In this document: in pieces, positions 5,702-57,130 of the stretch
How the letters are laid out: every line of letters begins with the position of its first letter
Position numbering within the stretch: the stretch's first letter is position 1
Origin: Bacteroidota bacterium
Lineage (GTDB): Bacteria; Bacteroidota; Ignavibacteria; Palsa-1295
Assembly (NCBI GenBank): GCA_021324685.1
Contig: JAJPIQ010000008.1
Coordinates: forward strand, 47,343 to 111,342
DNA: 64,000 nucleotides
Reading direction: 5' to 3'
Notes under the pieces: generated by a model
Seen by the model: the letters and a program-made list of their open reading frames with translations, nothing else
Databases searched by the model: none
What the model was told of the DNA's origin: nothing
Position numbers and translations under genes: made by a program

Positions 5702-8278
5702 ATGAAACAGTACCATCAAACCCTGCTTTGCGCAGCGGTCATCATCGCAGTGCTGTGCGGGCTTGCGAATGCACCGTTTGCACAATCCTCCACTCCATCG
5801 TCCAGCGTGCCGCGGACGATCTCCTATCAAGGCGTGCTCGAAACGCCGGCCGGCCTTCCGGCCCCCGACGGACCGTGCACGATCCACGTGCGGCTGTATG
5901 CCGATACGAATGGATCGGCACCGCTGTGGAGCGATACCTATACGACGACCGTCCGAAACGGCATCTTCAATGTGATGCTCGGTTCGGGAACCGTTCCACT
6001 TCCGGTGCCCTCCGCGATGGACGCTGCCCGATACGTCAGCATCCAGGTCGGAGAAGGCCCGGAGATCCGTCCGTTCTCGGAACTTGGCGCGACACCCTAT
6101 GCCATCACCGTTGCCGACGGCGCGATCACAAAGGATAAGATCGCGGCCGATTACGTCGGCTCCCTTTCGGTCAACGGCCAGAAAGTAACGGGACATGGCT
6201 CGGACGTAAACATCGAAACAAGCGGTGGACTTCATGCTTCGCTCGATCCCGTAACGAACGCGATCGTGCTTTATGGGACGACGGGCAGCGCCGGAAACGA
6301 TACCAAAGGCGGCGAGCTCCCCCAGGGAAACCAATATATCGACAATCAGACGACACAGCAATCGAGCGCGAGCTTTAATGTCGACGGTTCCGGCGTGATC
6401 GGCACGACCTTATCGGTCGGGTCCACGCTCACAGTGAGCGGTTCGATCAAAGCGGCGCTTGCCTCGGGCGTCGTGCATGCGAACGGTTCGGGCAATGCGC
6501 TGACCTCCGGTGCGGTCGCGCTCGGATCCGAAGTGAGCGGCTCCCTGCCCGTCGTCAATGGCGGCACCGGTGCGACGACCGCGGCGGCGGCAGCCAATAA
6601 CCTGCTCCCCACCCAAACGAGCAGCAGCGGGAAGTTTTTACAAACCGATGGCAATGGCACGCTTTCATGGGCGTCCGTTTCGCTGACGTCGAACGTGACG
6701 GGAACGCTTCCCATCGCGAACGGCGGGACCGGAGCGACCACGGCGACGGCCGCGGCGACCGCGCTATTGCCGGCACAAAGCGGAAATGCCAGCAAGTACC
6801 TTCAGACCGATGGAAATGGAAATTTGACCTGGGCGTCCGGTCCGACCGGACCGCAAGGTCCCGCCGGCCCGACCGGAGCGACTGGTCCTGCGGGCCCCAC
6901 CGGTGCGACCGGCCCCGGTGGTGCCGCCGGTCCTGCCGGCGCAGCGGGTCCTGCTGGAGCAACCGGAGCGACTGGTCCGGCAGGCCCTGCCGGGGCGTCT
7001 GGGCCTCAGGGTCTTCAGGGACCTCCGGGACCGAATACACCTTCGAGCGACAATGCCACGCCGCTTGGCAGTTCGAGCGACCGGTGGAGTGCATTGTATG
7101 TCGCTGGAGCGATCAATACCGGGCTTGCCGCGGGCGTCGTGCATAGTGCAGGTCCGGGATCGAACCTTACGAGTTCCGCCGTCTCGCTTACGAACGATGT
7201 ATCCGGAACGCTTCCGGCCGGCAACGGCGGCACGGGAATGCCAGGATCGGTCGGAACGAATTTCCTGCGCGGAAATAATTCCGGAGGATGGAGCCAGTCG
7301 GTCATCGGCGTTGCCGATGTGCCGGACCTTTCTTCGCTCTATGTCAATATGCGTACGGCGCAGACCGTCGGGGGCATGAAGCACTTTTCGTGCTCGGTCA
7401 CGACCGATTCGGGTTATCGGATCGGGGGGACGATCGTCCTTTCGAATTCCGGTTCGGAAAACCTATTCCTCGGCCAGGGTGCCGGCGTTGGAAATACGAA
7501 CGGCTTCAATAATATGTTCGCCGGTTACCAGGCGGGATATTCGAACACGACCGGTGAGAGCAACGAATTCGCCGGCATGTTCGCCGGATATGGCAACACG
7601 ACGGGCTCTGCGAATACCTTCGAGGGAGCGCTTGCCGGTTACAGCAGCACGAGCGGCGACGTCAATACCTTTATCGGTTCCGAGGCCGGATATAGTAACG
7701 ACGATGGATATCAAAATACGTTCATCGGCGATCTTGCCGGGCCGAACAATACGTCGGGCGCGAACAACACGGCGCTCGGGATGGAGGCGGGCTATAGCAT
7801 TACGGGCGAAGATAACATCACGCTCTTGGGCGCGGGGTCCGACATTGGGAACTACGGCATTACGAACGCAACGGCCGTGGGCGCGAACACTATCGTGAGC
7901 CAGAGTAATACCGTCGTCTTAGGTAGCGGGGCCAGCGTCGGCATCGGGACGAGCGCTCCGGACGCCACGCTGAACGTCGTGGGAACCGTCCATGCAACGG
8001 GCACGGCCACCTTCGACGGTTCCGTGATCGCGACGGCCAGCAACACGGCCGCTTCTTCGAACAGCGGCGTAACGATCACGGACGTACCCGTCTTTATCAT
8101 CGGCCAGGGTTCGGCCACGGCGGATTTTACGCTCACCATGCCGACCGGTTCGGCGGCCGGCGATATGATCGTCGTGATCAACCAGGACGCGACCTATTCG
8201 GCGACCTATAGCACGACGGCAAAAGTGGCACCGCTCGGTTCCCGCACGTTCTATTACGACGGCACGGCCTGGCAGTAG
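5702..8278 (+). CDS. Large secreted fibrous surface protein with tail-fibre-like NGGTG repeats, a collagen-like Gly-X-Y tract and YadA/tail-fibre-like 14-aa repeats
   Basis: ORF-track frame 5561..8278; the likely start is the ATG at 5702, giving signal peptide [29 protein letters not shown]. Two ~46-aa repeats carry LP(V/I)(V/A)NGGTGATTA...YLQTDGNG. There are 22 uninterrupted Gly-X-Y triplets (nt ~6838-7035). Later repeats look like N.F.G..AG.SNT.G ([30 protein letters not shown]...). Confidence 0.8.
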
Positions 8279-31794: not shown

Positions 31795-32001
31795 TGAACG
31801 GCCAACGTGCGCTCCAGCGCATGCGTTCAAGGGTATGCTCGATGATGTTCCCATCTACCAGGGCGCGCTTACTCCCCTGAAAATCGACTCGGAAAAGGTT
31901 GGTTAACTAATGGCGCGCGGGCGAGCGCATGCAAGGAGTACCGTGTTATTCCCTCGAACGCTGGGAACCAAGCCCATGGGAACTCGGTAAGTGTTCTGGC
32001 G

Positions 32002-38044: not shown

Positions 38045-38071
38045 TGTCATTCCCGCGAATGCGGGAATCCA
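38045..38071. repeat. Hairpin repeat copy A (tgtcattcccgcgaatgcgggaatcca; stem ATTCCCGC/GCGGGAAT, loop GAAT)
   Basis: Perfect 8-bp stem with a 4-nt loop. One of four related copies bracketing the GIY-YIG gene. A degenerate half-copy (tgtcattcctgcaatgc) lies at 38022-38038. Confidence 0.7.
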
Positions 38072-38081
38072 TAGCTTTCAT

Positions 38082-38459
38082 TTAGTATGAAGGTCCATTT
38101 TCACTCGGCTTATGGATGCCCGCATTCGCGGGCATGACAGGATTTGTTTCGAAATACGGAAATTGATAATTATTTGTTGAAAGATCGACCCATTCTGGAT
38201 TTTTCTTCTCGATCAAATTTATTTTCCACTGACGATTCCACTTTTTTAATTGCTTTTCCCGAGTTATTGCCGCGTTAATATCTGAAAAAAATTCGAAGTA
38301 GACTAATCGATTAACGTCGTATTGCTTTGTGAAACCCTCGAAAGTGCCTTCTTTGTGTTGAGCCACACGTCGCTCCAGATCCTTGGTCACGCCGATATAG
38401 AGCGTTCCGTTACGCTGACTCGCCATAATGTACACATAGTAGTTATGATTCATCATCAT
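38082..38459 (-). CDS. GIY-YIG nuclease family protein (small, single-domain)
   Basis: Start MMMNHNYYVYIMASQRNGTLYIGVTKDLERRVAQHKEG (GIY...YIG motif) within ORF 38082..38621. The ORF's N- and C-terminal extensions are simply read-through of hairpin repeats C, D and B (e.g. IPASAGMT, MPANAGIH). The region is AT-rich relative to its flanks. Confidence 0.75.
   Translation of the reverse strand: MMMNHNYYVYIMASQRNGTLYIGVTKDLERRVAQHKEGTFEGFTKQYDVNRLVYFEFFSDINAAITREKQLKKWNRQWKINLIEKKNPEWVDLSTNNYQFPYFETNPVMPANAGIHKPSENGPSY
38112..38139. repeat. Hairpin repeat copy B (inverted orientation; stem ATGCCCGC/GCGGGCAT)
   Basis: tggatgcccgcattcgcgggcatgacagg. Relative to copy A it carries compensatory t>g / a>c changes that preserve the stem. 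Confidence 0.7.
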
Positions 38460-38467
38460 CAGACTTC

Positions 38468-38495
38468 TTGTCATTCCCGCGGATGCGGGAATCCA
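38468..38495. repeat. Hairpin repeat copy C (ttgtcattcccgcggatgcgggaatcca)
   Basis: Same orientation as copy A; loop variant GGAT. Confidence 0.7.
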
Positions 38496-38539
38496 GCGCT
38501 TTCCTGCGATTTGAACTTCGCGGTTGGCCGCAAAGAATA

Positions 38540-38567
38540 GATTCCCACATTCGCGGGAATGACATTC
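38540..38567. repeat. Hairpin repeat copy D (inverted; gattcccacattcgcgggaatgacattc)
   Basis: Reverse complement is gaatgtcattcccgcgaatgtgggaatc. The stem has one G-T wobble position. Confidence 0.65.
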
Positions 38568-38574
38568 AAAATGT

Positions 38575-38922
38575 TTATCCCGACTCCTCCTCCATGTGAT
38601 CGAGATACTTGCTCTTGGCAAGCGTCTTCAGATCGTCGAGATATTTATTGATGCGTTTGCGAACGGGATAGCCCGAGGCTTCGCGATAGTTCTTATCGGG
38701 AATGGTCGAGAACATATCGTCATCCTCGTGCTGGAAGGTGAAAATATCGGTCGAGCGCACGACCCACAGGTTCACCGTCTTCTTGCGGCGGCCGAACTGC
38801 TCTTTCGCGAACGCGAGCGCAAGTTCCGGGTCCGGCGCGTGAACGATTCCGACGAATTCGTGCGCCGCGCCGCGCTTGTCCTGATGGAAGACCGCGAACG
38901 GTTCCCAATGTTCGTTTTGCAT
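38575..38922 (-). CDS. paaB: 1,2-phenylacetyl-CoA epoxidase subunit B
   Basis: Start MQNEHWEPFAVFHQDKRGAAHEFVGIVHAPDPELALAFAKEQFGRR...NLWVV matches PaaB (WPLYEVF...HVGS.HA.D...AL..AR..Y.RR). The ORF-track N-terminal extension (38923-38991) lies in the repeated 62-bp element and is rejected. Confidence 0.8.
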   Translation of the reverse strand: MQNEHWEPFAVFHQDKRGAAHEFVGIVHAPDPELALAFAKEQFGRRKKTVNLWVVRSTDIFTFQHEDDDMFSTIPDKNYREASGYPVRKRINKYLDDLKTLAKSKYLDHMEEESG

Positions 38923-38982
38923 GAGGCCGCCCGAGGCCGGAGCATGCTCCAGATCGGCGCGGCGGATGCGGGGGTCGAGACT
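38919..38982. repeat. 62-64-bp direct repeat R2 (gcatgaggccgcccgaggccggagcatgctccagatcggcgcggcggatgcgggggtcgagact), containing the paaB start codon and a 12-bp perfect palindrome GGAGCATGCTCC
   Basis: Near-identical copy (3 mismatches) at 40148..40211. Palindrome at 38939-38950. Confidence 0.8.
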
Positions 38983-38993
38983 GGTGGTCATAA

Positions 38994-40151
38994 TTAAAAT
39001 TTGTAAACGTATTTTTCTGCTAATATAATTGAGTCATTGCTCCCTAGATAACTGCACGATAATGGGAGGTTATCTTCTCTCCATTCGTATGAAACAGCAT
39101 TCGTTAAACCTGGAAGGGAAATAAATTTACGTGTACGCTCGACAGGTCTGCCTTCTTCGTCATACACATATTGTATTATCTCCGTGTCCAATGGGTTCGA
39201 GCAAGGCAGAGGCGGGCAGTTTATACAACGTTCTCGTATAATTACCTTATTGAGCGAAAGGATGACATTACCATGGCTATCAAATCGATCTTCGCTACGA
39301 AGGCACGGTGCTGTCACATCCTTTAATAGTTGATAATGTGAGGTTCGAATGATATTACCATTTCTATCGAGAATAGTGCTATCTATATATAGAGGTTCTT
39401 GGTCATTGTATTGCAATCTTTGTGACGCAATAATTTCATTCCTGTTGTTAAAGTAATTAATAATGCGTTCCGAAAGTCGAAGATTGTTTACGTTGTTGCC
39501 GGTTTTATGCTGCCAATCAATTTCGCTGTCGATCCTTTCTGAAGGTCCCCAATACATTACCGATTTCGTACCCTGATAATCGACGGAACTCCAATTGGAG
39601 TTATCCGTGATTTGAGCGACTGTCGCAGTCTCCACTGAATTGTCCCGGTATTGAACGTATGATAATTCCCGACCCAAAGAATCATAATGGAAGATATCGG
39701 ACGAACCGGGATCTTTCTGAAAGTTACCGTATTCCCTTTTGATATTCCGTTTGTCGAATTTTATTTCTGTCGTTGCATTTAGTTCTCGATTAAAGTTTGT
39801 CGCAATAAGCGTATCACCCGAATAAGAGAACGTCCACGTTTCCGTATCGGCGACGGGAGAATATTTGGACGAGTCGAATACTGGAATCGTATCGTTTGGA
39901 TTGGTTGAATCGATACGATGCGGATAATTAAAGCTATAGCTAATACATGAGAACGATTTCAGATGATGACTACGAATCCATTGGAGCGCTGATGTATCGT
40001 CACACCAAGCAAGTTGATGCAAGTTAATTCCCGGTGAGGTGTGTTCCGGCCAGTCGGGGACAAATTGAGCGTATAGTTCCGTTCCCGTTAACAGCATAAA
40101 ACAAAACGAGAAGAATCCGAAAGCATATCCTTTCCAATGCCTAGTCTGCAT
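38994..40151 (-). CDS. Secreted YD-repeat (RHS-repeat-like) protein, paralog 2; low-GC
   Basis: Start MQTRHWKGYAFGFFSFCFMLLTGTELYAQ (signal peptide) within ORF 38994..40220. YD motifs HYDSLGRELSY, FDSHGNVIL, YVYDEEGRPVER; C-terminal ...VYKF. The first 6 codons (MQTRHW) mirror paaB's MQNEHW because the R repeat spans the start. Confidence 0.65.
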   Translation of the reverse strand: MQTRHWKGYAFGFFSFCFMLLTGTELYAQFVPDWPEHTSPGINLHQLAWCDDTSALQWIRSHHLKSFSCISYSFNYPHRIDSTNPNDTIPVFDSSKYSPVADTETWTFSYSGDTLIATNFNRELNATTEIKFDKRNIKREYGNFQKDPGSSDIFHYDSLGRELSYVQYRDNSVETATVAQITDNSNWSSVDYQGTKSVMYWGPSERIDSEIDWQHKTGNNVNNLRLSERIINYFNNRNEIIASQRLQYNDQEPLYIDSTILDRNGNIIRTSHYQLLKDVTAPCLRSEDRFDSHGNVILSLNKVIIRERCINCPPLPCSNPLDTEIIQYVYDEEGRPVERTRKFISLPGLTNAVSYEWREDNLPLSCSYLGSNDSIILAEKYVYKF

Positions 40152-40211
40152 AAGCCCGCCCGAGGCCGGAGCATGCTCCAGATCGGCGCGGCGAATGCGG
40201 GGGTCGAGACT
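40148..40211. repeat. Direct repeat R1, copy of R2 (gcataagcccgcccgaggccggagcatgctccagatcggcgcggcgaatgcgggggtcgagact)
   Basis: Lies between the two YD-repeat genes. Carries the ATG of the downstream YD paralog and the same 12-bp palindrome (40168-40179). Confidence 0.8.
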
Positions 40212-40229
40212 TTGTAACATGGTCGCTAT

Positions 40230-41249
40230 TCAAAATTTGTATACACATGTTGAATTTCCGTTATGATCTCTTATGGCCAGAAGACGATCATCATCTCCCC
40301 AAATGTATTCATTTCGTCCCCCGTCGCCCGTGCTCACTGTGACACGCCCAAATGAGTCATATTCATATGAATCACTAGTGGTATCAGGCTCAGCCCCCCA
40401 TAGATCGTAGCGTGTCTCGGTCGTGATAGAGCGAATACGATTGGCGTGCTCATCGAACAGTTTTTCCCCACAGAAATGAAGATTGTTGTCTTCGTCCTTA
40501 TCTGGATTATTCCAAAATCCATACGTGACAACCCGTTGCAAAATACCGGAAGGATAGTAGAAAAAACTATCGATCGATGTCGCTCCGCTGAATATCTCGT
40601 AAGAAAGCTGGAGCCGATTCGATACGTCGTAGAAATTGTGCGTTGCTGTAACAAGAATTGTATCTACGTTGCTTTGCTTGAGCTTTCCTTTCCGTTTCTT
40701 GGGTGTAAGGACCATTCTCTCGAAAGCGCTATCTACTCGTCCTCCCAAACCGAAATACTTAGTCTCAAGCCAATAGCCGTGTTGGATGGTAAGCACCTTG
40801 CCGATCTGTGCATATGACCATGTTTCAAGATTTGGCTTCTCGTCACTCCATCTCCGCGCTGAGTCTGCCAGCAAGACTTGTTCGCTTAACTGCCTCCCAA
40901 TTGAGTCGAAGGTTTTAATCCTTGTCAGACCGGATGAGTGCGTTTCGAGATAACAAAGCGTATCACGGCCATCGTACTTCTCTATCATTTCTTGATTCGG
41001 ATGTCCAATATTCGTAATACGGACAAGGGTATCTCCTGAGACTGAGAAGCCGTATTCCCAAATGGTATCTGGACGATTAGACACTACTACTCCAGCCATT
41101 TTGAGATGATGCGCTCTGATCCAAGCGAGTGTAAGCGGAGTCGGCGATTCCAAGTTCACACCTGGATCCGTACGAATATTGTACTGAGCGTTCGCATAAT
41201 TAGCGAACGTCAGTAACAATACCATCCCCATAAGCAATCGCGCGTTCAT
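40230..41249 (-). CDS. Secreted YD-repeat (RHS-repeat-like) protein, paralog 1; low-GC
   Basis: 339 aa. Signal peptide MNARLLMGMVLLLTFANYANAQ. Shared motif LAWIRAHHLKM (vs LQWIRSHHLKS in paralog 2). YEYDSFGRVTV YD repeat; C-terminal ...CVYKF. Confidence 0.65.
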   Translation of the reverse strand: MNARLLMGMVLLLTFANYANAQYNIRTDPGVNLESPTPLTLAWIRAHHLKMAGVVVSNRPDTIWEYGFSVSGDTLVRITNIGHPNQEMIEKYDGRDTLCYLETHSSGLTRIKTFDSIGRQLSEQVLLADSARRWSDEKPNLETWSYAQIGKVLTIQHGYWLETKYFGLGGRVDSAFERMVLTPKKRKGKLKQSNVDTILVTATHNFYDVSNRLQLSYEIFSGATSIDSFFYYPSGILQRVVTYGFWNNPDKDEDNNLHFCGEKLFDEHANRIRSITTETRYDLWGAEPDTTSDSYEYDSFGRVTVSTGDGGRNEYIWGDDDRLLAIRDHNGNSTCVYKF

Positions 41250-51740: not shown

Positions 51741-53111
51741 ATGCAAGTCAGGGGTAAACGCTTTTCTATCTTAGGTGCCGGAAAGTCCGGCCTTGCGGTT
51801 GCGCGTTTGCTAAAGACGCGAAGGGCTAAAGTCTTCATCTCCGAAAAAGGAAAGCAATCCAAGTTCGAAGGCGCGGCAAAGGAATTAGAAGAGATCGGTG
51901 TCGAATATGAATTCGGCGATAACACGCACCGCGTTTTGGAGGGCGATTACGTCGTCATAAGCCCCGGCGTTCCGCTCGATGCCCCGATCCTAAAGCTTGC
52001 CCGCGAGAAAGGAATTAAAATTTTAAGTGAGATCGAGGTCGCCTTCGACGAGTGCGAAGCGCCCGTCGTTGCAATCACCGGGACGAATGGAAAAACGACG
52101 ACGACAACCCTCGTCGGAGAGATATTTAAGAAAGCAGGATGGGACACCTTCGTTGCCGGCAATATCGGGCTGGCATTTTCTCAAATTGTCGATGAGGCAA
52201 ATTCGGCGCATCGTTCCGAAAATTCAAAGACGGTTGTCGTGCTCGAAGTCTCGAGCTTTCAGCTCGATGCGATCGATGAATTTCGTCCGAAGGTATCGGC
52301 ACTGCTCAATATCACGCCCGACCATTTGGACCGCTACAAAAATTACGAGGCGTACATTCAGGCGAAGTACCGCATCGTCGAGAACCAGAAGGGCCACGAT
52401 ATTTTCGTCTATAATCACGATGACGAGAACGTCCGCAATTGCGCCGACACGGTGAATATCCGCACGCTTGGGTTTTCCCTGAACGAAGAGACAAAGCAGG
52501 GAGCTTTTCTTTCGGGAGACGATGTCGTCCTTCGCATCGGTCGCGAAAAAGAGACCTTGATAAACCGGAATGAAATTGGGATCCCCGGACCGCACAACCT
52601 CATGAACGCCATGGCCGCCGCGCTGATGACGCGTGCCATGGGGGTCGAATTCGAAGCGATCCGCGAAACGTTGCGGGCGTTCAAAGGCGTCGAGCATCGC
52701 ATCGAATTCGTGCGGGAGCTAAATGGCGTGAAATATTACAACGACTCGAAAGCGACCAACGTCGATTCGGTCTATTATGCGCTGGGAAGTTTCAAGGAGC
52801 CGATCGTGATCATTCTTGGCGGCAAAGACAAGGGCAACGATTATTCGCAGATCGCGGAGCTTGTGAAGGAACATGTGAAAGCAATAGTGACCGTCGGCAA
52901 AGGCGCGGAGAAAGTCGAGAAGTTTTTCAAGGAGATGAAGCCGATCTATTCCGCCGGAATGTCCATGGACGAAGCCGTGCGTTTAGCCAAAGAGGCCGCC
53001 GCGCCGGGAGATGTGGTACTTCTTTCGCCCGCCTGCGCCAGCTTCGATATGTTCGATAATTACGAGCATCGGGGGAAGGTGTTTAAGGAATTGGTGTGCA
53101 GCCTGAAATAG
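51741..53111 (+). CDS. murD: UDP-N-acetylmuramoylalanine--D-glutamate ligase
   Basis: 456 aa. ILGAGKSGLAVARLL and ITGTNGKTTTTTLVGEI motifs. Confidence 0.9.
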   Translation: MQVRGKRFSILGAGKSGLAVARLLKTRRAKVFISEKGKQSKFEGAAKELEEIGVEYEFGDNTHRVLEGDYVVISPGVPLDAPILKLAREKGIKILSEIEVAFDECEAPVVAITGTNGKTTTTTLVGEIFKKAGWDTFVAGNIGLAFSQIVDEANSAHRSENSKTVVVLEVSSFQLDAIDEFRPKVSALLNITPDHLDRYKNYEAYIQAKYRIVENQKGHDIFVYNHDDENVRNCADTVNIRTLGFSLNEETKQGAFLSGDDVVLRIGREKETLINRNEIGIPGPHNLMNAMAAALMTRAMGVEFEAIRETLRAFKGVEHRIEFVRELNGVKYYNDSKATNVDSVYYALGSFKEPIVIILGGKDKGNDYSQIAELVKEHVKAIVTVGKGAEKVEKFFKEMKPIYSAGMSMDEAVRLAKEAAAPGDVVLLSPACASFDMFDNYEHRGKVFKELVCSLK

Positions 53112-53112
53112 T

Positions 53113-53511
53113 ATGAAGCAACCGTTACTTGTATTTTTGTACGTTTTGATTTTCGTTGCAATCTGTTTCGGAGTTTACTTCCTTATTGCGTTTATCACGG
53201 GTAAATTTATTCGAAGGAAGGCTATTCGCATATTGGTCGCAGTTCCACTTAGTATTCTTATTTGTGTGCTCGGAATGTGGTTTTTGGGGACCGAGCCGGA
53301 AAATAGCGTGACTGCTCAAAAATATATTTCTGGAAGTCCTGCTCAAGTCGATAGCATTGTGGGGAAAACTCGAAGTGAGACACGTAGCTTGTTAGGAGAC
53401 CCTACAGATTCTGTAGAGAATGAGTATTATTATGGTATAGCTCGTCACGAAGGAATTTCCGTCGAGTTTGAAAACGGAAAGGTTTACAAAGTTTATCATA
53501 CTGGAAGGTAA
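53113..53511 (+). CDS. Small hypothetical membrane protein inserted between murD and ftsW (low-GC)
   Basis: 132 aa. Two TM helices (LLVFLYVLIFVAICFGVYFLIAFI; ILVAVPLSILICVLGMWFLG). Start is 1 nt after the murD stop. AT-rich relative to the dcw genes. Confidence 0.5.
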   Translation: MKQPLLVFLYVLIFVAICFGVYFLIAFITGKFIRRKAIRILVAVPLSILICVLGMWFLGTEPENSVTAQKYISGSPAQVDSIVGKTRSETRSLLGDPTDSVENEYYYGIARHEGISVEFENGKVYKVYHTGR

Positions 53512-53567
53512 ACACAACTGTTAAAAAATATCGCCCTTTTAGGGCATTGGAATTTTAATGCACTGCT

Positions 53568-53725
53568 AACCCAGGGCTTCGTCCGCATTCGCGGACTGCG
53601 CCCTGGGCTGCGAGTACACCGTGCCTACGGCACTAAGGAATTGCGGCAATGGGAATTTATCAAAAATTAGCCACGAAGTGGCGAAGTACTCGCAGCCCAG
53701 GGTGAAGCGAAGCGCAACCCTGGGT
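53568..53725. repeat. Cluster of nested hairpins / inverted repeats in the dcw insertion (X1 53568-53617 and inverted X2 53686-53725 share ends acccaggg...ccctgggctgcgagtac; inner hairpin gtccgcATTCgcggac)
   Basis: The inner hairpin at 53581-53596 shares the CCGC-GAAT/ATTC-GCGG core with the GIY-YIG-associated hairpins. Additional palindromes gtgcctacggcac (53621-53633) and ccacgaagtgg (53671-53681). Confidence 0.6.
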
Positions 53726-53776
53726 AAAATGACGAATAGATTTTTTATGGCCCTGTAAGGGCGATGTTAAACCGAA

Positions 53777-54370
53777 ATGAAACCAAAACGAACCGCCGAC
53801 CTGAGCCTGTTTTTGACCGTGACCGGTCTTTTGCTCGGTTCGGTTAGTTCTCTCGCTGTTGCACAAAAGAATCGGGCAATAGTATCTCACGATAGTACAG
53901 ATCACGAATTTTTGCCGATCACTCAGAATCCCGACTTCATCTTGCCGATGGACGACCCGGAAGATGATTCAAATTATGATTATGGGACACAGGCTGCTTT
54001 GAATGGACTGGCAGGTGAATATTCTCGTAAGGTTGATTCGATGCTGAACACCGTCTATAAAGCAATATTGAGTAAGTATAGCGTGGATACTGAATTTATT
54101 CGATACTTTAAGAGAGCCGAAGCCGCCTGGATAATATATAGAGATGCCGAAATGTTGGCGATTATTCCACCTATTGAACCACCGGATGTCCATGGCTCCA
54201 TGGAAAGCATGTGCTACAGTGAATACCGAGTCTCGCTTACTCGAGAACGAATAAGCGAATTGCTGATGTGGCTAAACGTCGATCCGATGAACCAGACGGG
54301 ATGCGATACTTTTTATCCTGATGATTTATTACAATCAATGCGAGGCCAAAAAAATCAAAGAAAAGAATGA
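53777..54370 (+). CDS. Secreted DUF1311/LprI-like (lysozyme-inhibitor-like) protein whose first 20 codons duplicate the 5' end of ftsW
   Basis: 197 aa. MKPKRTADLSLFLTVTGLLLGSVSSLAVAQ. nt 53776-53837 are ~97% identical to 54366-54427 (the ftsW start). LNTVYKAILSKYS...RAEAAWIIYRDAEML...HGSMESMCYSEYRVSLTRERISELL fits the DUF1311 pattern (Y...L...QRAWI.YRDA.C....GGS....C......R..EL). Its stop overlaps the ftsW ATG (ATGA). Confidence 0.6.
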   Translation: MKPKRTADLSLFLTVTGLLLGSVSSLAVAQKNRAIVSHDSTDHEFLPITQNPDFILPMDDPEDDSNYDYGTQAALNGLAGEYSRKVDSMLNTVYKAILSKYSVDTEFIRYFKRAEAAWIIYRDAEMLAIIPPIEPPDVHGSMESMCYSEYRVSLTRERISELLMWLNVDPMNQTGCDTFYPDDLLQSMRGQKNQRKE

Positions 54371-55539
54371 AACCCAAACGGACCGCCGACCTGAGCCTGT
54401 TTTTGACCGTGACCGGTCTTTTGCTCGCAAGCCTGGCGTTCGTGTACTCGGCAAGCGCCTCGTTCAGCGCGGTGAAGATGGGCGCGAGCGAGTCGATGCT
54501 CTTCAATCACGCAAAGAAAGTGTTCCTGTCGCTCGTCGCGATGATCGTCTTCACGAAGATCGACTACCATAAATTCGAAAAGCAGACGAAATGGATCATG
54601 ATCTCCTCGCTCTTTCTGCTGGTGGCCGTGCTCTTTATCGGGACGCGGGAACTCGGCGCGCGGCGCTGGCTGGCGCTTGGGCCGTTCAGCTTTCAACCGG
54701 CGGAGTTCGCAAAGTTCGCACTCGTGCTGCATGTGGCAGCGCTCTGCGCGGCAAAGCAGGAGATCATCGGTAACTTCAAGAAAGCATTCCTTCCCATTGT
54801 CTTTTGGGCGATCGCCGCCGCGGCGCTGATCGCGAAGCAGCCGAACATGTCCACGGCAAGCGTGCTCATGGTGATCGCATTTGCGATCATGTATATTGCG
54901 CAGGTGCCGCTGAAGTATATGCTGACGAGTGGCGCCCTGGCCCTGTTTGGAGGCGGGCTCTTCGCGCTGACGGCAAGTTACCGCGTTCAGCGCATGCTGG
55001 CGTTCGTTGGGCATCACACCCAGCATACATCGCAGGTCGCATATCAGACGGACCAGGCGCTCATTGCCTTCGGCAATGGCGGACTGTTCGGGGTCGGCAT
55101 CGGGCAGTCGCGGCAAAGCCTGTTTTTCCTTCCTGAGTCCTACGGGGACTTCATTTATTCGGTGATCGGTGAAGAATATGGATTCATCGGCGCGATCCTG
55201 CTCCTGGTCGTCTTCGGATTCATCGTCATTCGCGGCATTCAAATTGCAAAACATGCTCCCGATGCATTCGGACGCTACACGGCCTTCGGAATTACGATGA
55301 CCCTTGCCCTGTACGTTACGATCAATGCGTTCGTGAATGTTGGGCTCCTGCCGGTCACGGGACTGCCGATGCCATTCGTAAGCTATGGGGGCACGAGCAT
55401 GATCTTCAGCGCCGCGGCCATGGGAATTTTACTCAATATCTCGAAATACGCCGTGACGCTCCCGAGGGCACCTCGGGTGACGATCGCGGAGCGCCTCTTG
55501 CGCATCGTAAAACCACCAGAACAGGAAGCCATTGCCTAA
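54367..55539 (+). CDS. ftsW: Peptidoglycan glycosyltransferase FtsW (SEDS family)
   Basis: 390 aa, ~10 TM helices. SEDS motifs (…PAEFAKFALVLHVAAL…, …GLLPVTGLPMPFVSYGGTSM…). Canonical position. Confidence 0.85.
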   Translation: MKPKRTADLSLFLTVTGLLLASLAFVYSASASFSAVKMGASESMLFNHAKKVFLSLVAMIVFTKIDYHKFEKQTKWIMISSLFLLVAVLFIGTRELGARRWLALGPFSFQPAEFAKFALVLHVAALCAAKQEIIGNFKKAFLPIVFWAIAAAALIAKQPNMSTASVLMVIAFAIMYIAQVPLKYMLTSGALALFGGGLFALTASYRVQRMLAFVGHHTQHTSQVAYQTDQALIAFGNGGLFGVGIGQSRQSLFFLPESYGDFIYSVIGEEYGFIGAILLLVVFGFIVIRGIQIAKHAPDAFGRYTAFGITMTLALYVTINAFVNVGLLPVTGLPMPFVSYGGTSMIFSAAAMGILLNISKYAVTLPRAPRVTIAERLLRIVKPPEQEAIA

Positions 55540-56644: not shown

Positions 56645-57130
56645 ATGGACACCGAAAAACATGTTTATCGCGTGCGGCTCGACTTTCTCTATCAGTCGAT
56701 CGCGGTCTATGCGGCAACGCTTGTCGTCTACCTGATCATTCGTTCCATCGCCGAATGGCATATCTTTCCGACCTTATGGCAGGACCCCTTACTCTTGCTC
56801 TTATCTGCGATCACGCTGATCAGTGCACTGGCCCTCGCCTATAACATTTTTATGCGCCGCCAAATTGAAATTACGCGCGATGCCCTTCGTTTCACGAGCC
56901 GGGCGCGGACCCGATCGATCGAGCGAACCAATGTCGCGTTCGTCCAGATCGGTCCCCGAGGGCGCGAAGTGCGCCGCGTGCGGGCCGTTCGCATTCGCTT
57001 GCGAAATCAGAAACGTCCCATTCGCATTCGGCTTTCGAATTTTGAACGCAGCCGAAAATTATTAACCGACCTGGAGGAATGGGCCGGGCCACTAGCTTCC
57101 GCGCGAAGCACACGTCCCGCGCAGGCCTGA
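56645..57130 (+). CDS. Hypothetical small membrane protein located between murG and murC
   Basis: 161 aa. Two TM helices (IAVYAATLVVYLII; LLLLLSAITLISALALAY) followed by an Arg-rich tail. Not a canonical dcw gene. Confidence 0.45.
   Translation: MDTEKHVYRVRLDFLYQSIAVYAATLVVYLIIRSIAEWHIFPTLWQDPLLLLLSAITLISALALAYNIFMRRQIEITRDALRFTSRARTRSIERTNVAFVQIGPRGREVRRVRAVRIRLRNQKRPIRIRLSNFERSRKLLTDLEEWAGPLASARSTRPAQA

Follow-up and report, generated by a model that had tools for sequence, protein, structure and literature searches.

An LprI-domain gene that starts with a copy of the start of ftsW, in a hypervariable murD–ftsW junction of Kapaibacterium-like bacteria

Results

The window analysed here is a stretch of 64,000 nucleotides of an uncultured Kapaibacterium-like bacterium (GenBank assembly GCA_021324685.1, contig JAJPIQ010000008.1), and the subject is ORF197, an open reading frame (ORF) for a protein with an LprI/DUF1311 domain, which lies between murD and ftsW in the division and cell wall (dcw) cluster. 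The start codon, the charged n-region and the hydrophobic core of this protein are, here and in some related lineages, a copy of the start and the first transmembrane (TM) helix of ftsW. The junction in which the gene lies is a hypervariable islet in the genus-level clade to which the host belongs. From the sequence comparisons given below, it appears probable that an LprI gene once captured the 5' end of ftsW in an ancestor of these lineages, and that the two gene starts have evolved in concert ever since.

A copy of the ftsW start at the head of ORF197

The two copies of the direct repeat (Table 1) are identical at 60 of 62 nt. Both mismatches fall on synonymous third positions (CCA/CCC and CGA/CGG), so that ORF197 and ftsW both begin MKPKRTADLSLFLTVTGLLL, and the near-identical repeat and the reuse of the first 20 ftsW codons, which the preliminary description had read from the letters of the window, are borne out by alignment. 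The length of the repeat is far beyond chance. Among start pairs of ORFs that are not neighbours, 11 identical residues out of 24 were seen in 1 of 740,231, and when all ORF starts in the window were scanned, only the pairs ftsW/ORF197 and paaB/ORF408 had a start in common. No further unrelated neighbours with common starts were found across 0.89 Mb, i.e., the window plus the loci of its relatives. The repeats bracket only the body of the LprI gene, in a unit of 590 bp. The same repeat architecture recurs in independent assemblies (Logan, JGI, NCBI, ENA), and from this follows that it is not an assembly artefact, a doubt that the preliminary description had itself raised.

At the protein level, residues 1-20 of ORF197 are FtsW-derived, residues 21-29 form a diverged c-region with the motif AVA-QK, residues 30-65 a conserved linker, and residues 66-162 (nt 53972-54262) the LprI domain, after which comes a K/R-rich C-terminal tail. 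The stop codon TGA overlaps the ATG of ftsW as ATGA, as had been described, and the same overlap is present in L001 and L005, two of the related loci introduced below. The search against PF07007 gave E=4.4e-15 and 56.4 bits, compared with a cutoff of 22, and covered profile positions 5-106 of 106. By this profile match, which upholds the DUF1311-like assignment made earlier, ORF197 is a member of the family, above its gathering score. Its orthologues make up only four clusters among 5.8 billion proteins, one identical (P0001) and the others 79%, 65% and 59% identical, and every one of them sits between murD and ftsW. Queries with the exact sequences of FtsW and ORF197 of the window returned no entry, even though P0001 is present in the protein database. 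When metagenomes were scanned with the LprI alignment, only FtsW starts were found and no new LprI loci.

In both copies of the repeat there is also a 5-bp hairpin, GACCG-TGAC-CGGTC, followed by TTTTGCTC (53815-53837 and 54405-54427), which was flagged in a scan for terminators. The 5' foot of the hairpin coincides with the repeat boundaries at +37 and +40 in other genomes, and the boundary in the window, at +61, lies just past its U-run. The hairpin might act as a point of breakage or of pausing, or the agreement could be mere coincidence.

An old gene with a start that follows its own ftsW

Orthologues of the LprI gene are found at the murD–ftsW junction in four lineages (the window, L001, L004 and L005), with amino acid identities of 57-80% for the body and 59-79% for the full length. 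Between the LprI-bearing genomes the synonymous sites are saturated, with a proportion of differing sites (pS) of ~0.65 for ftsW and 0.63-0.89 for the LprI body, and the ratio of nonsynonymous to synonymous divergence (dN/dS) of the body, 0.10 in comparison with L004, signifies purifying selection. When synonymous divergence is saturated at the same site in four lineages, the event that placed the gene there cannot be recent, and this means that an LprI gene headed by the FtsW start is an old arrangement.

Both repeat copies can be read in the window, in L005 and in L001, while the contig of L004 stops inside the LprI gene. The ftsW orthologues differ from each other at 5-9 of their first 60 nt, whereas the LprI start differs from the ftsW of its own genome at 2 of 60 nt in the window, at 3 of 78 nt in L005 and, by BLAST, at 1 of 40 nt in L001 (3 in the first 42 nt when aligned without gaps), where the two are diverged beyond this point. 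Compared with a set of 25 ftsW starts, the LprI start ranks its own ftsW first in 3 of 3 genomes. Informative sites are those at which the ftsW orthologues differ; of the 46 comparisons made at them, 41 show the LprI start to agree with its own genome and 0 with the other one, counts that are few and that overlap between comparisons. The matching tracts are ~40 nt (L001), 62 nt (window) and 78 nt (L005) long and end at different points. Past the tract, in codons 21-29, a weaker similarity to FtsW persists in L001 and L004; to exemplify, L004 has ASVASVSFA where FtsW has ASLAFVYTA.

The LprI starts thus track the ftsW of their own genome while the arrangement itself is old, and from this follows that the 97% identity of the repeat reflects homogenisation within the genome. 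It is not the scar of a recent insertion. Judged from these sequences, the start of the LprI gene and the start of ftsW evolve in concert, most likely by gene conversion: copies within a genome are more alike than orthologues between genomes, the tract is sharp, its ends are specific to each lineage, and older homology flanks it.

A variable slot in a conserved cluster

The FtsW relatives of the window among species-representative genomes are metagenome-assembled genomes labelled Candidatus Kapaibacterium, Ignavibacteriota or Bacteroidetes, and Kapaibacterium is placed under Bacteroidota in the NCBI taxonomy. Close relatives are here those with FtsW 75-97% identical to that of the window; the gap between murD and ftsW could be measured in 27 of them, and MurD is 79-88% identical in those with a full-length MurD match. 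In distant relatives (FtsW at most 70% identical) murD and ftsW lie 0-160 bp apart, and the genes found between them here are therefore additions to an ancestral junction that was tight. In the close relatives the gap ranges from -1 to 1,879 nt, with a median of 499, while the neighbouring dcw junctions are stable: 43-177 nt for mraY–murD, -5 to 18 nt for ftsW–murG and -1 to 28 nt for murG and the next gene. At least 10 different contents occur at the one junction (Table 1). Since the order of genes in the dcw cluster is a textbook case of conservation, such variety within a genus-level clade is unexpected.

Table 1. Features of the window (coordinates from its first letter) and contents of the murD–ftsW junction in related loci (L numbers).
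Feature	Position or locus	Strand	Description
murD	51741..53111	+	Pfam Mur_ligase_M, Mur_ligase_C, MurD_N; core dcw gene, left border of variable slot
ORF132	53113..53511	+	two-TM protein with soluble C-terminal part of ~70 aa; outside direct repeats
Palindromic spacer	53527..53768		nested inverted repeats 53527-53545/53750-53768 and 53596-53636/53667-53707
Direct repeat copy 1	53776..53837	+	start of LprI-like gene, copy of ftsW -1 to +61
ORF197	53777..54370	+	197 aa; LprI/DUF1311-domain protein, Pfam PF07007
Direct repeat copy 2	54366..54427	+	genuine ftsW start
ftsW	54367..55539	+	Pfam FTSW_RODA_SPOVE, E=6e-91; essential SEDS (shape, elongation, division and sporulation) gene, right border, repeat donor/partner
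paaB	38575..38991	-	PaaB domain (Pfam, E=3.2e-23) from residue 29 on; N-terminal extension (residues 1-28) copied onto ORF408
ORF408	38994..40220	-	first 29 codons copy paaB start, ahead of own signal-peptide-like segment
Empty junction	L010, L012, L013, L016, L082, L087, L090, L091, L095		
LprI with FtsW start, alone	L005		
Two small TM ORFs, then LprI with FtsW start	L001		
DUF3298/PdaC, RsiV-like protein, then LprI with FtsW start	L004		
ORF132 and spacer, then LprI with FtsW start	window		
Small TM ORF and spacer only	L009		
Further LprI-family genes, each with a signal peptide of its own	L008 (309 aa), L015 (164 aa)		
Glyoxalase	L028, L086		
Phospholipase D (PLD)-like protein	L089		
RAYT (REP-associated tyrosine transposase)/IS200-like Y1 transposase, flanked by REPs (repetitive extragenic palindromes)	L011, L092, L093		
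HNH-repeat/T5orf172 protein and unknown ORF	L094		
Orphan ORF250	L014		
4-TM ORF, ORF132 homologue, 207-aa ORF	L098-L101		

In the window the interval measures 1,255 bp, with a GC content of 0.44 compared with 0.57 for ftsW, and holds in order ORF132, a non-coding stretch of 265 nt with a palindromic core, and ORF197. The ~1.25 kb of lower-GC DNA and all coordinates of the preliminary description hold, and Pfam confirms the two flanking genes. Its view of one insertion into the dcw cluster survives in part: the interval has indeed been added to a tight junction, but not as a single piece of 1.25 kb, since the repeats bracket the 590-bp unit only. Of the old arrangement that it had set against an insertion, a part is borne out: the LprI gene occupies this one position in four lineages.

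The sister of the window on the FtsW tree is L009, and when the 590-bp unit is removed from the window the two are colinear, with a single high-scoring segment pair of 437 nt across the junction. On a neighbour-joining tree of FtsW the distribution of the LprI gene is patchy and falls in two separate clades.

ORF132 and the hairpin spacer form a module of their own within the islet, separate from the LprI unit, since they lie outside the repeats and such modules also occur where LprI is missing (L009) or where the cargo is another one (L098). ORF132 begins 1 nt past the stop codon of murD. Its two hydrophobic segments, where 19-residue Kyte-Doolittle windows starting at residues 1-16 and 35-43 exceed 1.6, agree with the two-TM protein reported earlier, and it has no Pfam or NCBIfam family. 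One clear homologue is known (P0008, 71% identical, dN/dS 0.20), at the same junction in L098-L101; a homology to ORF70 of L009 could not be demonstrated. The spacer is a long imperfect palindrome with a predicted folding energy of -120.1 kcal/mol (z=-9.3 relative to shuffled sequences), and it has no Rfam match. It occurs once in the window. Its homologue in L009 (70% over 278 nt) adjoins the ATG of ftsW, a remnant is found in L031, the left half in L098, and a partial match elsewhere in L082. It may be an element of the REP type or of the type of miniature inverted-repeat transposable elements (MITEs); a kinship with the REPs that flank the RAYTs (L011) was considered and dropped, as there is no sequence match.

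Three of the other contents can be described further. In L004 (6812-7972) a DUF3298/PdaC protein of 386 aa lies directly upstream of the LprI gene and has a match to the lysozyme-sensing anti-sigma factor RsiV that is weak (NCBIfam E=1.4e-4, far below cutoff); it adds a further domain connected with the envelope or with lysozyme to those found in this slot. In L011 (4131-4990, with equivalents in L093 and L092) the gap holds a RAYT (Y1_Tnp E=4.5e-23) flanked by inverted REP hairpins, CCAGTGGC..GCCACTGG and GCGCC..GGCGC. In L094 (341-1991) a protein with the homing-endonuclease-associated HNH_repeat and a MUG113/T5orf172 (GIY-YIG-like) domain is accompanied by an ORF of 280 aa without family.

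Upstream of ftsW, the 25 nt before the ATG (54342-54366 in the window) have over 26 loci a mean A content of 0.40, compared with 0.22 for the window, and in the LprI-bearing loci this content is 0.56-0.64. Where LprI precedes ftsW, the A-rich stretch is the Lys/Arg-rich C-terminal tail of the LprI gene. No obvious Shine-Dalgarno sequence was seen upstream of the ftsW ATG in the 26 loci.

Start copies at other places

The start of ftsW has been copied in other relatives as well. The orphan ORF250 of L014 begins MMPKHISLSRFLTFTAFLLASLAFV and has 52 nt (86.5%) in common with its own ftsW, including codons that are specific to L014. In L011 and L093 a tandem-like duplication of 94 nt, composed of a REP and positions -56..+37 of ftsW, lies 162 nt upstream of the real start, and the ftsW fragment in it is decayed, with a stop at codon 5. 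In L098 (1732-1848, identical in L099-L101) an ORF of 38 codons begins MKPKRTDELSKTLAIVAFLSSLIISC... (MKPKRTDELS...), its first 17 nt equal to ftsW and its first six codons FtsW-like; it has a lipobox-like IISC and stops before the 207-aa ORF, whose reading frame is different. A lipoprotein gene with a frameshift, or a remnant, may be what is seen here; it is not a read error, since it is identical in four assemblies.

A second gene of the window has its start copied, namely paaB in the paa operon. The start of ORF408 and that of paaB form a repeat of 81 nt with 88% identity (40131-40211 and 38902-38982), in keeping with the start sharing at the paaB junction that had been noted before, and the copy on ORF408 carries paaB variants that are specific to this genome. 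The orthologue of ORF408 in L096 (P0006, 73%) lies elsewhere in the paaA–paaB gap, unfused, and has a native start, MRKYQQIM..., from which follows that the capture of the paaB start is derived and recent. A mechanism of insertion common to ftsW and paaB, as proposed in the preliminary description, was not demonstrated, and neither insert contains a transposase or an integrase. A tandem duplication in the paa operon, with ORF339 as first copy and ORF408 as a fusion of paaB to the second, was also considered as source of the repeat and rejected: the paralogues are 28% identical, compared with 88% for the repeat, and P0006 has a native start.

These footprints, at least 4 different ftsW-start duplications across the relatives and an independent, recent capture of the paaB start in the same 64 kb, could point to a recurrent route of gene addition in this lineage. 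New coding DNA would be joined, with the reading frame kept, to between 6 and 30 initial codons of a downstream host gene, the duplicate would keep the host gene intact, and conversion would keep the chimeric start current. This we suggest very tentatively, and would rather doubt than maintain.

ORF339 itself (40230-41249, minus strand) is a distant paralogue (28%) of ORF408, with a signal peptide of its own and a weak match to RHS repeats. Together the two are low-GC cargo between paaA and paaB, which may be a second variable slot, since L096 and L097 have different contents there. Between paaB and paaC (38045-38621, minus strand) lies a GIY-YIG gene (Pfam E=2.1e-20). It is flanked by a hairpin repeat of 35 nt, TGTCATTCCCGCGAATGCGGGAATCC..., one copy of which lies at 38045-38079 and another at 38469-38503; a third copy, which has diverged, is found at 31944-31978. 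Gene and hairpin repeats have the look of a small selfish element that has entered the paa operon.

The borrowed segment as a putative export signal

ORF197 has the n-region MKPKRTAD and a single Kyte-Doolittle peak, at residues 9-29. Candidate cleavage sites are found 26-29 residues in for all four orthologues: AVA-QK (window), SFA-Q, CFG-Q and SLA-F. With a positive n-region, one hydrophobic segment and plausible residues at -3 and -1, the borrowed n-region and TM1 core of FtsW could plausibly act as a Sec signal, as had been proposed when the reuse of the first TM segment of FtsW was pointed out. Cys146 is invariant in 4 of 4 orthologues and the cysteine of the TGCDTFY motif is kept in all three full-length ones, and the cysteines conserved in the four suggest a disulfide in the periplasm. 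The domain of the family is all-helical; an AlphaFold2 model of ORF197 from the alignment of four sequences had a predicted local distance difference test (pLDDT) score of 39.6, with helices predicted at 72-100, 105-129 and 142-166, and could not be used for a fold search. A search of the PDB with the sequence of ORF197 gave no meaningful match.

Discussion

A probable capture followed by concerted evolution

The explanation that we consider probable starts from a single origin, in which the 5' end of ftsW, probably at least 87 nt of it, would have been duplicated partially onto the LprI gene. Codons 21-29 would then have diverged into a c-region of small residues with a signal-peptidase site of the AXA type, while codons 1 to ~13-26 would have been overwritten again and again from the adjacent ftsW by intragenomic gene conversion. 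The protein would be exported, or anchored, through the borrowed FtsW segment, and transcription from the dcw promoter would run through the gene and put it on one transcript with the dcw genes, while its translation would be coupled to that of ftsW by the ATGA overlap and the A-rich Lys/Arg-coding tail. At the same time, recombination between the flanking direct repeats would readily remove the LprI body with precision, and homologous recombination could bring it back; loss and re-acquisition together would explain why the distribution of the gene is patchy.

Several points weigh against parts of this picture. With three genomes that have both copies, and with the small number of informative sites, conversion cannot be told cleanly from a renewed gain of the cassette through homologous recombination, or from a series of fresh duplications. 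The tree is a neighbour-joining tree of a single gene and may be distorted by recombination. The N-terminus of ORF197 is possibly a membrane anchor that is never cleaved, since the h-region plus c-region is long (21 aa), and the LprI fold is assigned from the hidden Markov model (HMM) of the family only, since the AlphaFold2 model is unusable.

Consider first what the same observations would mean without gene conversion, if the cassette repeat-LprI-repeat moved between related strains by homologous recombination, with the ftsW start as left arm and ftsW as right arm, so that the left repeat were partly rewritten with recipient sequence each time. The two separate clades on the FtsW tree would then be natural, as would the precise polymorphism of presence and absence and the occurrence of one cassette with four different upstream contexts, and a homology of 62-78 nt is sufficient for RecA-mediated exchange. 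However, the divergence of the LprI bodies rises about in step with that of the hosts, with L004 closest to the window by both MurD and LprI, there are no near-identical LprI bodies in diverged hosts, and a transfer would be needed in every lineage. For this, transfer of the cassette as the whole explanation is unlikely.

Alternatively, the 5' end of ftsW could have been copied afresh onto the gene upstream in each lineage, independently of the others. That ftsW starts can be duplicated independently, with other junctions and partners, is evident from the boundaries at +17 in L098, +37 in L011 and ~+77 in L014, and the capture at paaB is recent, since the ORF408 orthologue P0006 has its own start. 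What makes this course of events quite unlikely for the LprI gene is that all its orthologues have in common the right junction, with the stop over the ATG, and the linker HDSTDHEFLPI, and that L001 and L004 retain the older, weak FtsW similarity past the tract, just as one capture plus partial conversion predicts.

Closest to the insertion of the preliminary description would be a recent arrival of foreign DNA of low GC content, brought in by a mobile element or a site-specific recombinase, with the 62-bp repeat as a target-site duplication or an att-like scar that restored ftsW. In accordance with this, the GC content of the gap is lower, the sister L009 is without exactly the repeat-bounded unit, genes of mobile elements (RAYT, HNH-repeat/T5orf172) lie at the same junction in other genomes, the duplication of REP plus ftsW start in L011 occurs alongside REP/RAYT sequences, and a second start duplication, that of paaB, is found within the same 64 kb. 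Yet neither the unit nor its ends show a transposase, an integrase, a terminal inverted repeat or an att core (ORF132 and ORF197 were checked against Pfam and NCBIfam), inverted repeats being confined to the spacer upstream, and of the 1.25 kb just the LprI body lies between the repeats. A recent event is also at variance with four lineages that have the gene at the same site with saturated synonymous divergence, with repeat lengths that vary between lineages (40/62/78 nt), and with a repeat that tracks the ftsW of each genome. Taken together, these observations make a recent insertion improbable.

That selection at the nucleotide level preserves the first ~60 nt of ftsW as a cis-regulatory RNA element needed by the upstream gene (an initiation region, the hairpin GACCGTGACCGGTC with its U-run, or a target of a small RNA) is hardly credible: although both copies carry the same small hairpin followed by TTTT, and although genes of the Bacteroidota type rely on A-rich, unstructured initiation regions, with which the A content upstream of ftsW would agree, such an element predicts the same sequence everywhere rather than lineage-specific synonymous variants shared only within a genome, and the hairpin has just 5 bp and is not conserved in L016.

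Relation to known systems

Chimeric genes that arise by partial gene duplication are the subject of a review (PMC3449122). As in such genes, a copied 5' end here gives the start and the N-terminal residues to a different body. In the present case, however, the source gene remains whole directly downstream, the very short duplicate is kept homogenised, and what was the first TM helix of a polytopic protein would now serve as an export signal. Integrative elements can carry a copy of the end of their target gene (attL/attR at tRNA or protein genes) and restore it on insertion. Like these, the present arrangement has direct repeats of a host-gene end that flank an insert, an intact host gene and the possibility of precise excision; unlike them, it has no integrase and a unit of 590 bp, its repeat is translated as the start of the cargo gene, and the length of the repeat varies by lineage. 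REPs and REPINs (REP doublets that form hairpins) have many dispersed copies in a genome and a cognate RAYT of the IS200-like Y1 type. The 240-nt spacer resembles them as a long imperfect palindrome in an intergenic position, and RAYTs flanked by REPs occur at the same junction in L011, L092 and L093, but the spacer has one copy in 64 kb and no match to the REPs of L011, there is no RAYT in this region of the window, and the spacer does not enclose the LprI unit.

The nearest precedent is the lpl cluster of tandem lipoprotein genes in Staphylococcus aureus, for which a unit of concerted evolution made up of the 3' part of one ORF, the intergenic region and the 5' part of the next is reported (Tsuru & Kobayashi 2008, PMC2568036). 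There too, the 5' coding region of neighbouring genes, with the signal peptide, is reported to be a unit of recombination and evolution apart from the gene body (PMC2568036). The lpl genes are paralogues, whereas here a SEDS polymerase and an LprI-domain protein, which are unrelated and of which one is essential, share ~60 nt. In the literature no description was found of an accessory gene that shares its start, or co-evolves in its start, with an adjacent essential gene, nor of a hypervariable islet at murD–ftsW. The components, i.e., partial duplication, chimeric genes and gene conversion, are known, and the combination found here is a variant of these.

Function

The preliminary description likened ORF197 to lysozyme inhibitors. 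According to the literature, no experiment ties the LprI domain as such to the inhibition of lysozyme, an activity that is attributed to the MliC domain (PMC7933661), and ORF197 has no MliC domain (PF09864), PF07007 being its sole Pfam match at E<=1. ScwA of Salmonella, the only studied Gram-negative LprI member, modulates the levels of lytic transglycosylases, and a scwA deletion mutant is unchanged in its susceptibility to lysozyme (PMC7933661). Without an MliC domain, and without a lysozyme phenotype for the LprI-only ScwA (PMC7933661), the suggested role in lysozyme inhibition is unsupported. ORF197 is like LprI of Mycobacterium tuberculosis and ScwA in its HMM match over the whole domain, its likely export to the periplasm and its conserved cysteines, and a periplasmic domain stabilised by a disulfide between conserved cysteines has been described for ScwA (PMC7933661). 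It differs from M. tuberculosis LprI, which has the MliC domain as its lysozyme-inhibiting part, and from the family, in which a native signal or lipobox is found in place of an N-terminus borrowed from FtsW. By analogy with other LprI-domain proteins, ORF197 probably has a periplasmic role related to peptidoglycan. ScwA ties the LprI domain to peptidoglycan turnover, which fits a gene embedded in the dcw cluster, and that one and the same junction of peptidoglycan synthesis has taken in three divergent genes of the LprI family as well as an RsiV-like protein suggests a role in the envelope.

Significance

By this example, an essential gene can, with its first TM helix, supply the translation start and the presumed export signal of an accessory, presumably secreted protein encoded next to it, and two unrelated genes can evolve in concert over ~60 nt. 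Such repeats ease precise gene loss and can mislead assemblers and annotators, and short repeats that are nearly identical can pass for fresh insertion scars even when the arrangement is old. If recurrent capture were true, it would be a new route to the birth of chimeric genes in bacteria, with the starts of essential genes as reusable landing pads and as cassettes for the expression and export of accessory genes.

Other features of the window

Rfam models, at gathering thresholds, and tRNA scans were run over the whole 64-kb window and gave no match. A scan for sigma-70 promoters and terminators gave counts about equal to those expected from shuffled sequence, the sigma-70 models being ones that do not cover Bacteroidota promoters; the sole TAnnTTTG motif falls within ORF132. 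Between murG and murC (56645-57130) lies a conserved ORF of 161 aa without Pfam family, which appears to be a fixed, lineage-specific member of the dcw cluster, since an equivalent of 166 aa is present in L001-L003. At 6837-7032 there are GC-rich (0.69) repeats with a period of 9 nt, which encode collagen-like Gly-X-Y triplets.

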